Assembly: GCA_002256025.1 (NCBI GenBank)
Contig: NKIB01000371.1
Coordinates: 1 to 33,281, forward strand
Length of the DNA: 33,281 bases
Reading direction: 5' to 3'
DNA from: Asterionella formosa
Taxonomy: Eukaryota
The notes under the pieces are model-generated. The model ran no database searches, was not told where the DNA came from, and worked only from the letters and a program-made list of their open reading frames with translations. Below are positions 9,102 through 14,419 of this stretch, in pieces. Both the position numbers and the translations under genes were made by a program. Position 1 is the first letter of the stretch; each line of letters opens with the position of its first letter.

Positions 9102-9979
9102 TTTATTGTAGATTAGTTCGACAAGATATGGGAGCTAAATATATGTCAGTTCCAATGCTCAATATATTTTACGGAGAAAGAGAACCTGCTGATAGCATCA
9201 TAGTACATACTCCAAACATCAGGCATAGATCTGACGGATGCGTTGGTGTGAGAGATGTGCTGACGATGTTGATGATGAGGTGATGTCCATGTAGTAGTGG
9301 TACCAGGTACCAGGTACCTCGTAAACGAGTATCATGTATTAGTAAATGACAAGTGTGATAATATTGTGAAGTGAGTTCTGTGATGGCTACTCTACATACC
9401 GGTACTGGTACCCGACTGACAAAAACACTGGGCGGATGAGGAAGGAGTACCACTCTACCTGGTGATATAAGATTCTGACTTTTTTAAAATTTGTATATTT
9501 ATATGTCTATTCGGTTATGAATACTCCTTTATACTTTAGCAATTATTTTTTTACATACTATACCTACATGTGCATCCTCACAATACATGTCGCTGCGAGC
9601 AGGAGGTCAACTGTGCTGGTGTGACGAGCCGGTGTATACACATACCCCCAGTATTCTATTTTTACCGGTCGTGCTATTCGCTCCCGGCAGCGCGCAACCA
9701 CAGCAGCGAGTACCGGTAGATAACATGCTTACCCGTATCGGTATACCAGTTCTCCAATGTAACTTATGGTTTCGAAATTGGACCAATATACACATACCGG
9801 TATGCTGCTTGCTAGGTGACCAGCACCGGTACCAGGTACCAGTATGTAAACTACCCATGTCCCTGGTACTGGTACCATACAACATAGCTACCAGTATTGG
9901 TTTTAGACTCTTGCTCTTCACGATATATTTCTAAACAAATGTAATCATAAAATATTACCAGTCCTCTACATGTCCCAAA

Positions 9980-10609
9980 ATGGCATCGTCTCACAATCTC
10001 GCTGCAGCCAAGCGTCTCCGAAAGGAACTCCAAAGTCTGGAGAGACAAGTTGATGTCGACGACGATGTCTACCTTCGCCCGAGCAACAGCGATTCGATAC
10101 TGAAATGGACAGCACTGCTCCGAGGGCCGAGTCAGACCCCCTACGAAGGCGGCGTATTTCAATTGTCCATCCAATGCGGACCAGACTATCCTTTAGCACC
10201 TCCCACCATTACCTTTGTTACCAAGGTGAGTGAAAAATTCGATCTTTCTCTTCTTCGTCTTGCTTTCAACATGGAATTCATCTATAATACTAACGGTATA
10301 TTTACTTACTCTCACTCTGGCTACAAAAAATTTTATTTTCTGAAGGTCTTTCACCCTAACGTACATTTTACAACTGGAGAAGTTTGTTTAGATATTTTGA
10401 AAAAAGAATGGTCTCCTGCCTGGGGTCTACAAGCTGCCTGTCGTGCTGTCTTGGCCTTGTTGTCAGATCCAGATGCAGATTCACCATTGAATTGTGATGC
10501 AGGGAATATGATTCGGGGTGGTGATACCATTGCCTACCGATCGACAGCTAAATTATATGCTGTCGAAAATGCCATGTTTTTAGAGTGGCCGTTGGGGACA
10601 AAGGAGTAA
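9980..10609 (+). CDS. PEX4: Ubiquitin-conjugating enzyme E2, PEX4/UBC21-like; exons 9980-10225 and 10346-10609 (169 aa)
   Basis: AAKRLRKEL, TPYEGGVF, YPLAPP, FVTK|VFHPNVHFTTGEVCLDILKKEWSPAW, and DSPLNCDAGNM (PEX4-type). Removing the GTGAGT..AAG intron 10226-10345 restores the canonical E2 core. Confidence 0.85.
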   Translation: MASSHNLAAAKRLRKELQSLERQVDVDDDVYLRPSNSDSILKWTALLRGPSQTPYEGGVFQLSIQCGPDYPLAPPTITFVTKVSEKFDLSLLRLAFNMEFIYNTNGIFTYSHSGYKKFYFLKVFHPNVHFTTGEVCLDILKKEWSPAWGLQAACRAVLALLSDPDADSPLNCDAGNMIRGGDTIAYRSTAKLYAVENAMFLEWPLGTKE

Positions 10610-11195
10610 ATGGGACATTGTTGCAAAGTACATACCGGCATACCTACCGGTACTACAATCAAGAAGAAATGATGCGATCATATTGTCGATGATTTCTAAT
10701 GTGTTCTTGGGTCTTGATAATTATACAAATTAGTTGTCTTTGACAGAAAAAATATTGGTACAGCACACATGATCGTCACTGACATCATACTGACCCAAAA
10801 GTAGTAAATTTAACTGCTTTTATTCTAGAGGTTGACTATAACCTGATGATGGGAGCATATGGCTGAAGAAAATGTTCATGGTATTGTGTGAAATATTGAA
10901 ATGATCAGCGTCTTAAGATAAAATCACTCATGACGACTAGAACATAAAATGACTCAGAAACAGCATAACAACAGAGTGATGTACCGGTAAATTGCATAAA
11001 ATGGACCTAAAAGTATTCAAGATTACCTTGGCAGCGTAAAAAGTCATATTAGATCACATAATTCATAGGACCAGGAGTTGAATGATCCAAAGTCTCAATG
11101 TTTTTCGTGATGAGACACAATTTTGTTTCCCACTCCATCTCGTTTTGCTTCGACAAACGGTTTCCAAACATACACACACAATGACATGATTCATC

Positions 11196-12503
11196 CTACA
11201 CCACCGAAAAACCTCTTGGCTTGTCAGCACGAATATTCTTGGCTGGTGTTTCCATGTTATCCTCCGTCAATTCCCAGTTGCCCATCATGCAGGAACAATC
11301 TTCTTCCACCTTGATGGAAGCCAACGAGTTTCGTTTGTACGACACATTCTCCTTGGTCGATGGGACGACAATGCGAGCATCCATCGACGATCCCGAAAAA
11401 GGATTTTCCTGCATTTCACGCAAGCCACCATCATCGGCCATGAGAGTCATCACAAAGCGCTTGGGACGGAAGGTGCGGACAACATTGCTAATGAGAGAAC
11501 GATAAGACGTCACTTGCTGGTTGGTTTCAAAGGATGCGTAGGAAGATCCAGTCTCGGGAGTAATGTGAATCGTATAGTAAGTACGAAAGAGAATGGCATT
11601 CATAGAATATCCACATGGCTCAAAGGCACGAGGATCCACAATGGCACCTGGAATCAAATCGCTAATACCAGAATCTGTCGTCATCCTCTTGGAGATGCGA
11701 GCCGTTTCTTCATCCTTGCCTTCTCCTTCCAACTGTTCGTATGATCCGTAGTAAAACTTATGAGCCACTTCCTCATCAATATCAAACATCATAATGTTCA
11801 AGACACGGTCAGTATCAGTATCAGAGTTGCTGCGGACAGTGTGATCAGCCACAAAGACAAACCAATGGTCTCCAGTGACGGGTCCCAAGGTGTATCCACT
11901 TCCACCCAAGCGATCACATAGGTTTTGGTGCGAATACAAATAGTCCAATTCTTGATGAAAGGACTGGTGAGGAAATGCCTGGTCCCCTGGAAAGTTGAAG
12001 TTCTTGCGACTGTATCCCACCCAATCAATCTCCAAGCCGATTCTGCGTCCCAAATCAATCAGTGTGGCAATGCATCGGAGGAGGGTCGTGGTTCCACACG
12101 TCTTCAATACCAACATGTATGGGTAGACAAAGAGGGACGACTCAGACAGCACGTAGGCATCAACGTATTGGTTGGAAATAGAGGACAAGATAGTGCAACG
12201 AGCCCGAGCGCAGATGCGGTCCAAATCCTCGCGAGCTAGGCGTCGGAGCCCAACCTTGCCATTGACAGAAGGGGCATCATGGGTTATGGAGCGAAGGCGA
12301 CGAAAGCAAACTTCGAGCGTCTTCTCCGGTCCTTCAAAGACGCCAGTGTACTCTCTAAGATCGCCCGAGTGGTCATCGTCGGGTGCCTGCTGTGGCTGCA
12401 CCACCACTTCCAGGTCGGCCACATTCACAATAGTGTGATGTTCATTGGAGGACTCGCTCGCGTGCGTGCGGTCGTCGGACAGTTCGCAGTCAAGGACGTT
12501 CAT
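11196..12503 (-). CDS. SAMDC: S-adenosylmethionine decarboxylase proenzyme (AdoMetDC/SAMDC)
   Basis: FEGPEKTLEV, YVLSESSLFVYP (autocleavage E/S site), LKTCGTTTLL, FEPCGYSMN, TIHITPE..SYASFETN. Confidence 0.97.
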   Translation of the reverse strand: MNVLDCELSDDRTHASESSNEHHTIVNVADLEVVVQPQQAPDDDHSGDLREYTGVFEGPEKTLEVCFRRLRSITHDAPSVNGKVGLRRLAREDLDRICARARCTILSSISNQYVDAYVLSESSLFVYPYMLVLKTCGTTTLLRCIATLIDLGRRIGLEIDWVGYSRKNFNFPGDQAFPHQSFHQELDYLYSHQNLCDRLGGSGYTLGPVTGDHWFVFVADHTVRSNSDTDTDRVLNIMMFDIDEEVAHKFYYGSYEQLEGEGKDEETARISKRMTTDSGISDLIPGAIVDPRAFEPCGYSMNAILFRTYYTIHITPETGSSYASFETNQQVTSYRSLISNVVRTFRPKRFVMTLMADDGGLREMQENPFSGSSMDARIVVPSTKENVSYKRNSLASIKVEEDCSCMMGNWELTEDNMETPAKNIRADKPRGFSVV

Positions 12504-12538
12504 AATGAACCGGCTCGTGGGTAACTCAGTGGGGGGTG

Positions 12539-12853
12539 TCAGGAAAGAAAGGCCTGGACACGAACGAACTTGGCTGCTTCAGCCAAGACGATGGGTACGG
12601 CGACAAGAATTGCTCCGGACTGCACGGTGCAAGCGAATAAAGAGGAAGAGTAGGAAGAGGTGAAAGAGGGAGAAGAGTGAGGAACAATGTTGGAAGCAGG
12701 AACAATAGTATTCCGATAACTCTCCCGAGAAAAGAGAAGGCCGGAGGGAATACCGAGCCACGTTGGATTCTACTTGAACCGACGGCGGACTCCATCGGAA
12801 CTTGCTGTTTCTCGATCTACAGCTGCCGTTGCGTCAATTGCACTTACAGGCAT
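12539..12853 (-). promoter_or_regulatory. Predicted spliced upstream ORF of AdoMetDC: join(12853-12848, 12619-12539), 28 aa MPSGAILVAVPIVLAEAAKFVRVQAFLS
   Basis: ATG CCT is followed directly by a perfect GTAAGT donor (12847). A CTCAC branch-like motif, a long pyrimidine tract and a TGCAG acceptor (ending 12620) follow. Exon 2 has coding-like codons and ends CTT TCC TGA, 35 nt before the main ATG. Confidence 0.65.
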
Positions 12854-14419
12854 AAAAGGGTAATCGGCTCTATCACTGACAACGCCGGCTATGGAGTAGT
12901 CAGTTGATATATTCCACTTTCAAACACTGCAAAAGTAGAAGCGAATTTCTGTTTTGTTTGAGCCAAACACTCCCCATCAAAATTCAAGTCGCTTATCTAC
13001 ACTACCAGGTACCAACTCTCACGTCAAACACAGCACACCGCTACACCATAGTCTACTACTGCTGAATACTGATACCGGTATACTACTGGGAGGTAGACTA
13101 CCGGTACCAGGTGTACCAGTACCAGGGTGCCGATGATCATATCATACTACCACCACAGAATCACAATTCCTTACATACAGAAATGTTGCTATACTAGAAC
13201 GCGTGGCGCTGGATGGATGCTGTGATGGTACCAGGTACCAGGTACTGGTACCACCAGGTAAGTAGGATACCTGGTAACACCCCACCATACGTCATCAGTG
13301 CTGAACAATACCGCAAAACAGCTACCTGGTATCATTGTACCAGGTACCTCTTATGTACATAACGGTATACTGATATGAATTCTCCGGGTACTTTCATTCA
13401 ACGTGTGCTGCAATTCAAGTCAATAACAACGGACAACCGGTATGTACTACGGTATGTGCAGAGAATTGTTGGTGAAATCATAGTACCGGTAGTAAGGTGC
13501 TTGCTTGTTCCCTGATGTCGGGCTCCTGCACATATGCCCTGGCATCTACCGGTACTCAGCTTTGATAGGAGCACAGCATGCGCCGGAATGTTTTATTTAT
13601 CAAGAATCTGTATGGCTGGCACGACTTCATTCGACATGAGCGTGTGGACAAAGGTTTGTTTTTGCCAGTTTAGAAATAACAGCTATGAATATGTATCTCA
13701 AGTATCATGCATGCATATATATAAATATACATGGTATGCACATTTCGGTGATACTGTATATAAATTTTCCCCAATATAACAAATAACTTCATATATGAAG
13801 CAAATACCCAGTATGTTGACCCATGCACACATCCTTGACTAAAAATAAAACCAAGTGCATACCGATATCTTCTATCTTTCCTAGATGATGGCAATTATCA
13901 AGTTCACAAGGAGACAAGCGTACCGGTAGATAGTTTACAGACCAGAGCTAATCTTCAAAATCATCGCTACAGGTCGATTCTGATTTTAGTAAGCCAGATG
14001 GCAGACCATTCATCACTACTGGTAGACTGCTGGCCCTTCCACCTTGACTTTGGTTAGACTATTTCATTCATAGCGCTTGAGATAATAGCTAGTACTAGAT
14101 CCTAGGTATTTGATAAATGCATGTTCAAAAGAAACCTAGATTGCATTGTGCTACTAAGTACTAGTAGGACGAGCAATGACTGTTGGTAGTCTAACACGCA
14201 CCAAAAGAAAAGTAGTACTAGCAGTCGTCCCAGTACTACTTCATAGCAGTCTGGTTTTATGTAGTAGCATATCAGCATCACATAGCAATAAAGACCAACA
14301 AAGTTTGCATATAATAAATTATTTTCAATCACAGTCGATGCCGAAATGAGTTAGCTGCTTATTTTTATTTGTTTTATTGGTGATGGTGAACCCAGACAGA
14401 ATCCAGAAATGTTTTTGCC

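Follow-up and report, generated by a model that had tools for sequence, protein, structure and literature searches.

AdoMetDC commits S-adenosylmethionine to polyamine synthesis, and in animals and plants it is the classic case of a gene controlled by a metabolite-sensing upstream open reading frame (uORF). Does a diatom AdoMetDC gene carry a control element of this kind? The window investigated here is a contig of 33,281 nucleotides from the freshwater diatom Asterionella formosa (GenBank assembly GCA_002256025.1, contig NKIB01000371.1). An earlier note on this DNA, made from the sequence alone, had proposed that its AdoMetDC gene is preceded by a short uORF that is assembled only by splicing. 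Is this uORF present in the mRNA? Is it peculiar to this locus, or does it have relatives upstream of other AdoMetDC genes? And, if there is such a family, what has been selected in it, and what might its translation do to the AdoMetDC that follows?

The gene itself is readily recognized. The open reading frame at 11196-12503 (435 codons) matches the Pfam family SAM_decarbox with E = 2e-95; its ATG, at 12503 on the minus strand, has an A at -3, and the coding region is contiguous in contigs from two of the RNA runs described below (X1 record 1 and X5 record 9). The nearest named proteins are the AdoMetDCs of the diatoms Nitzschia, Fistulifera and Seminavis, at 66-73% identity, and two further proteins, P0002 and P0003, are nearer, at 84% and 83% identity. 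The convergent neighbour of the gene, an open reading frame at 9980-10609 on the plus strand, has a ubiquitin-conjugating enzyme domain (Pfam UQ_con, E = 2.3e-34). This match falls into two stretches, so that there is probably an unannotated intron inside the frame. The window also contains a palindrome-like motif, GGTACCWGGTAC, which is the heptamer GGTACCA in short tandem runs. It has 22 copies, on both strands, between 2674 and 32931 of the window (shuffled sequences lead one to expect 0), for example at 9299-9318, 13227-13253 and 13337-13348. Several of the copies are within 300 nt upstream of the AdoMetDC transcript, and the motif may belong to promoter regions or be a repeat dispersed between genes.

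The minus-strand sequence and the coordinates that had been proposed for the spliced uORF all agree with our re-reading (Table 1). The first exon of the frame consists of ATG (12853-12851) and CCT (12850-12848), directly followed by GTAAGT (12847-12842). The intron ends in a pyrimidine-rich stretch and an acceptor CAG whose last base is 12620, and the stop codon TGA is at 12541-12539.

Table 1. Features of the AdoMetDC transcript and its uORF in the window
Feature	Position	Strand	Basis
mRNA exon 1 (AUG-free 5' leader and uORF codons 1-2)	12848..12944	-	RNA contigs
uORF start codon, weak context (T at -3, C at +4)	12851..12853	-	sequence
228-nt phase-0 intron, GTAAGT...CAG, directly after uORF codon 2	12620..12847	-	RNA joint
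uORF exon 2, 26 codons, hydrophobic core VPIVLA, TCC TGA then C	12539..12619	-	sequence
AUG-free spacer, uORF stop to AdoMetDC AUG, 35 nt	12504..12538	-	sequence
AdoMetDC coding region, intronless, eukaryotic-type, 435 aa	11196..12503	-	ORF and Pfam, contiguous in RNA contigs

Is the frame spliced in this way in the cell? For the stretch 11196-12950, 22 sequencing runs were listed, of which 20 contain all or part of it; 18 of these 20 are recorded as RNA, from 16 studies, and they are mostly metatranscriptomes of lakes, freshwater and estuaries. The RNA contigs of four runs from four studies (X1, X5, X7 and X8) were compared with positions 10900-13500. All four join 12619 to 12848, skipping 228 nt that are bounded by CT..AC on the plus strand, that is, GT..AG on the minus strand. 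The depths of the contigs at this joint are 2883 (X1), 32 (X5), 1465 (X7) and 45 (X8); as assembled contigs, these data demonstrate the spliced form and not exact 5' ends or abundances. A single contig of 1616 nt (X5 record 9) joins 11101-12619 to 12848-12944, and X1 record 7 spans 12848-12933 of the first exon. Since the X5 contig ties the coding region to position 12944, the upstream AUG (uAUG) at 12853 is inside the AdoMetDC mRNA. The spliced leader from 12944 to 12504 contains one ATG only, the one that opens the 28-codon uORF, and at least 91 nt lie between this uAUG and the 5' end of the contig that reaches farthest. The 28-codon spliced uORF upstream of AdoMetDC is therefore real, and the intron, the two-codon first exon and the uORF length that had been read from the genomic letters are those of the mRNA, with the predicted 12848/12619 junction present in every run compared.

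Other forms of the leader are conceivable. An ATG farther upstream (12977-12975) would open an extra 25-codon uORF if transcription started beyond the ends of the contigs; none of the four runs has RNA coverage of 12988-13074. One contig is unspliced (X1 record 6, 12590-12877, minus strand), at a depth of 50 versus 2883 for the spliced joint, and represents either intron retention or pre-mRNA or DNA. With the intron kept, the uAUG opens a 27-codon frame, which is followed by an 89-codon ORF at 12526-12795, and retention would thus replace the conserved uORF by uORFs of 27 and 89 codons. The unspliced 89-aa ORF was also considered as a gene and rejected, as it has no Pfam match and is mostly intron. 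The runs contain some strain variation as well. A contig of X8 (1351 nt, over 11172-12522) has 10 differences from the window, and a variant A>G at 12528, in the spacer between uORF and AUG, is present in X5 and X8, which come from different studies. This is the one difference at 12528; there are none in 12529-12619 in the RNA runs.

Relatives of the uORF were looked for upstream of other AdoMetDC genes. An alignment of 24 diatom AdoMetDCs was used for a metagenomic search, in which 200 of the 256 pattern matches encode a relative, and the best 80 of the 200 loci were kept (L numbers below). Their AdoMetDCs are at most 71% identical to that of the window, and the leaders of P0002 and P0003 are not among them. 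A low-stringency tblastn search with the 26 residues of exon 2 gave weak matches again and again, at approximately 100-200 nt before the point where the match to AdoMetDC begins. With a short regular expression, 17 of these best 80 of 200 loci proved to have a similar peptide ahead of their AdoMetDC. A peptide profile was then built from the relatives and run against the 80 loci and the window, translated in all six frames and cut from stop to stop. Among the best 80 of 200 loci, 31 matched at E <= 7.7e-7 in the second round and 35 at E < 1e-3 in the third, in which the pieces of the window were not scored. Every one of these matches in the loci is upstream of AdoMetDC and on the same strand. 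The best matches elsewhere had E = 4.1 (second round, in a different part of the window) and E = 5.4 (third round, within the loci).

Four more members, L002, L012, L021 and L022, were added as judged by eye. This brings the family to 39 of the best 80 of 200 loci, or 35 non-redundant members, counts that are phylogenetically non-independent. Examples are at L032:140-220, L003:92-175, L038:114-197 and L021:56-148. Where the start can be assigned, the members have 25-31 codons (28 in the window), and they end 21-301 nt before AdoMetDC (35 nt in the window). On sequence comparison, diatom AdoMetDC leaders carry a family of conserved-peptide uORFs; the nearest of nine named proteins (54-86% identity) and their taxonomy give no more than a hint that it spans pennate and centric diatoms. 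The test of conservation proposed in the earlier note is thus positive, with a related peptide upstream of AdoMetDC in 39 of the best 80 of 200 loci and with the synonymous variation described below.

The family is not seen at every locus. The profile search and inspection by eye gave no recognizable member in 41 of the best 80 of 200 loci. Of these, 16 have less than approximately 200 nt of upstream sequence and eight have an AdoMetDC of only 43-52% identity; the remaining 17 are diatom-like, with at least 200 nt upstream, and count against a universal family. We also examined 23 profile-negative loci upstream of AdoMetDC for the nucleotide ending of the members, TCY-stop-C, which is absent from 12 of them. 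Suggestive short frames with this ending are present in L045, L048/L050, L060 and L077. Short frames ending Ser-stop-C include some upstream of distant AdoMetDCs (43-52% identity, possibly non-diatom). Those of L060 (~223) and L077 (~192) end about 50 nt before the start, and those of L045 (~2127), L048 (~123) and L050 end about 220-450 nt before it. From these frames one might suspect that the signature at termination predates the peptide family or extends beyond it.

What do the members have in common besides the peptide? Their starts are poor. With the window counted, the uAUG has T at -3 in 24 of 28 cases and C at +4 in 27 of 28; residue 2 is variable (Pro, Leu, His, Gln or Arg), and its codon almost always begins with C. 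The AUGs of AdoMetDC itself have A at -3 in 23 of 29 cases. By these counts the uORF start is kept weak and the main start is kept strong. The position of the intron recurs as well, with a candidate donor directly after ATG-CCN in six loci (L008, L009, L029, L058, L071 and L078) and directly after ATG-CTN or ATG-CAY in four (L004, L005, L062 and L080). The ATG CCT|GTAAGT of the window is identical in L008, L009, L058, L078 and L022. In another species, a transcript (L021) and a genomic sequence (L022) agree at 100% identity once a 481-nt intron, GTAAGT...CAG, exactly after ATG CCT, is set aside. The intron after codon 2 is not universal, since the long contigs L034, L039 and L042 read through. 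The end of the frame is the most uniform part. Of the 35 members, 30 have TCC as their last codon and three TCT; the stop codon is TGA in 28, TAG in seven and TAA in none (0), and the base after the stop is C in 34. UGA-C is a poor termination signal in eukaryotes, C being the poorest context after a stop. The terminal Ser, which the earlier note had stressed, is near-invariant in the family, encoded by TCC or TCT in 33 of the 35 non-redundant members.

How well does the window fit? It shares with the family ATG CCT|GTAAGT, the T/C start context, the length of 28 codons, the ending TCC TGA C and a short AUG-free spacer. The core of the family is a hydrophobic run, V/L-P, two hydrophobic residues and L-A, of which the window has VPIVLA. 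It is these six residues that align when the window peptide alone is compared with the family profile (7.0 bits, E = 3.2e-4 for one target); in the pooled search the 76-residue stop-to-stop piece of the window scored 2.8 bits (E = 79), with the match in its intron-encoded part. The penultimate residue is Pro (CCN) in 22 of the 35 members, which end Pro-Ser-stop, and the other 13 are without Pro. In the window it is Leu (CTT), one transition from the commonest codon, CCT, and the frame ends Leu-Ser-stop. The SAKS motif of most members is also missing from the window, which has AAK and extra residues before the ending. The uORF of the window is thus very probably a member of the diatom-wide family, a divergent one and its weakest.

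The window is not alone in the loss of the Pro. In a quick AdoMetDC tree with SH-aLRT support, the window pairs with L014 (SH-aLRT 90), whose uORF likewise has no penultimate Pro. Other Pro-less uORFs are those of L001, L002, L003 and L005, of L010-L013 with L021 and L022, of L056 and L062, and of L026. Because they sit in several branches of the tree, this suggests that the penultimate Pro has been lost independently several times. One sub-family, L010-L013, L021 and L022, has an AdoMetDC nearest to that of Seminavis and a second Pro in the core of the peptide. Its uORFs end Glu-Ser-Ile-Ser-stop or similar, which resembles the mammalian Asp-Ile-Ser-stop.

Has the peptide been selected, or the RNA that encodes it? 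Selection was measured family-wide, over the 406 pairs of 29 distinct sequences. The mean pairwise differences at codon positions 1, 2 and 3 are 0.456, 0.315 and 0.618, and the 21 nt after the uORF stop differ by 0.609. In the conserved columns of Pro, Val and Ala, each residue is encoded by three or four different codons. Position 3 is therefore as variable as the non-coding flank and position 2 half as variable, and this, together with the synonymous codons, argues for a translated and selected peptide and not for an RNA element. An RNA or splicing element as the target of conservation, with a reading frame only by chance, is extremely improbable. It would account for some nucleotide preferences, namely TTG for the invariant Leu (24 of 29) and, at the end of the frame, TCC for Ser, preceded by CCT; it does not fit the codon positions, and Rfam has no family in 12300-13100 at E <= 1. 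Nor is it probable that the selected peptide is a free micropeptide, small and hydrophobic, that is co-expressed with AdoMetDC and acts in trans. Purifying selection on the amino acid sequence and the hydrophobic core agree with such a product. However, the hydrophobic run of about 10-12 residues is short for a membrane span, and of the nine peptides compared with Pfam, that of the window and eight relatives, none matched a family at E <= 10, in a search where the peptides are very short and the HMMER filters drop most weak matches. The strongest invariants, moreover, are at the very end of the peptide and in nucleotides that encode none of it (the base after the stop and -3 of the AUG), which points to events on the ribosome. 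For these reasons we regard a trans-acting micropeptide as very unlikely.

The structure of the transcript, the family, the selection on its peptide and the contexts of start, splice site and stop are features of the mRNA and of the family's sequences. A weak start, a short peptide and a near-invariant final codon and stop context also point to the ribosome, at initiation and at termination. The explanation that we favour, and think somewhat more probable than the rest taken together, combines a divergent family uORF, leaky scanning, a peptide-dependent stall at termination and repression of AdoMetDC. Some scanning ribosomes would pass the weak uAUG and reach the AUG of AdoMetDC in its strong context. 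Those that translate the uORF would make a peptide short enough to stay wholly in the exit tunnel, and would terminate slowly, owing to the hydrophobic core of the peptide, the Ser codon at its end and the poor UGA-C signal. A ribosome stalled there would block those that follow, and less AdoMetDC would be made. By analogy with the AdoMetDC uORFs of plants and mammals, stalling, repression and polyamine dependence are the likeliest reading of this arrangement: the uORF probably lowers AdoMetDC translation, and the repression would most likely be stronger at high polyamine levels, as it is in both of those cases.

The main rival of the stalling explanation is a generic uORF that works without its peptide. 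The arrest peptide would have decayed, and the frame would capture scanning ribosomes that reinitiate poorly over the 35-nt spacer, with no sensing. The window peptide invites this reading, having neither the penultimate Pro nor SAKS and matching the profile over six residues only, and several branches of the quick AdoMetDC tree have lost the Pro too. With both features gone, the lineage of the window could have a weaker stall or none at all. Yet the window has kept the frame, the 28 codons, the weak start, the two-codon exon and TCC-TGA-C. The Pro-less uORFs of L001, L002, L003, L005 and L010-L013 retain peptides that are conserved among themselves, and the terminal Ser is retained in 33 of 35 members. 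We consider a generic uORF unlikely on this evidence. Rather improbable, too, is a more far-reaching version of the stalling explanation, in which the diatom arrest peptide is independent of that of plants, polyamines are sensed at UCC-UGA-C with no need of a penultimate Pro, and the intron and the length of the frame have roles of their own. If it were true, working Pro-less versions would exist in the window and in no fewer than three further branches, and would converge on the hydrophobic-Ser-stop ending of the mammalian MAGDIS uORF. The conserved intron would be a second layer of control, in which retention leads to uORFs of 27 and 89 codons and switches AdoMetDC off, and the length of 25-31 codons would set the distance of a ribosome queue from the stall site to the weak uAUG.

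Against the known systems, the stalling explanation for the diatom family can be compared first with the small uORF of plant AdoMetDC, which is AdoMetDC_leader (PF08132) in Pfam. Both have a conserved peptide before AdoMetDC, and most diatom members likewise end Pro-Ser-stop. The earlier note had held that the window peptide resembles neither the plant nor the mammalian uORF and may have evolved independently; it very probably belongs instead, as a divergent member, to a diatom-wide family in which 22 of 35 members share the Pro-Ser-stop of the plant small uORF. The AdoMetDC small uORF of plants and green algae is homology group 3 of the conserved-peptide uORFs (PMC2075485), a paper that does not mention diatoms. 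In plants its action is sequence-dependent and polyamine-responsive, and it is 48-55 codons long and overlapped by an upstream 'tiny' uORF (main-text passages of PMC2811004). The window differs from it in its 28 codons, in the one AUG of its leader and in the missing penultimate Pro, and its peptide, like those of eight relatives, has no Pfam match at E <= 10. The mammalian AMD1 uORF, MAGDIS, is similar in its hydrophobic residue followed by Ser and stop. It has six codons, starts 14 nt from the cap and stalls ribosomes at termination in a manner modulated by polyamines (passages of PMC2811004), in contrast to the window, which has 28 codons, a uAUG at least 91 nt from the 5' end and an intron that splits the frame. 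A third comparison is with the upstream conserved coding region (uCC) in the mRNAs of antizyme inhibitor and ODC homologues, which has a weak start and a conserved C-terminal region, ends Pro-Ser in animals and uses non-AUG starts (same passages, PMC2811004). The diatom family resembles it in its weak start context and conserved ending; the uCC belongs to another gene and starts at a non-AUG codon, whereas the start in the window is an AUG in poor context. A ribosome-queuing model has been proposed for the uCC.

Diatom AdoMetDC uORFs were not new when the window was read, although the earlier note knew of no description. In the passages of their paper considered here, Ivanov, Atkins and Michael (Nucleic Acids Res 2010; PMC2811004) name diatoms, in one sentence, among the groups with AdoMetDC uORFs, that is, for the same gene, leader position and group of organisms as in the window. 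They describe peptide-dependent, polyamine-responsive repression of translation by the mammalian and plant AdoMetDC uORFs, with stalling at termination in mammals, and give a penultimate Pro as the rule outside vertebrates and the sea squirt. This rule fits 22 of the 35 members found here; with 13 of 35 members and the window lacking the Pro, it is not valid for all diatoms. The two-codon first exon, the weak start context and TCC-stop-C were found here and not in the main-text passages of that paper. In what a full-text search of the literature returned, a diatom AdoMetDC uORF is described nowhere besides PMC2811004, and the word uORF is absent from the searched passages of two papers on polyamines of diatoms and microalgae (PMC6356823 and PMC10968388). 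AdoMetDC uORFs in diatoms have thus been in print since 2010, and the family-wide features and the Pro-less forms are additions. The link to silica that the earlier note drew is weak, because the passages of the same two papers ascribe the synthesis of diatom long-chain polyamines to separate SAMDC-aminopropyltransferase fusion genes (PMC6356823, PMC10968388); any relevance of the uORF to silica formation is indirect.

What does this mean for the diatoms? The mRNA of a freshwater diatom is shown to carry an AdoMetDC uORF, and the diatom family is now concretely defined by its peptide core, weak AUG context, two-codon exon and TCC-stop-C ending. Because the first exon is only two codons long, gene annotation pipelines will miss these uORFs. 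A one-line mention in the literature becomes a testable model, and the natural Pro-less variants, including that of the window, are ready-made mutants on the question of whether stalling needs the penultimate Pro.
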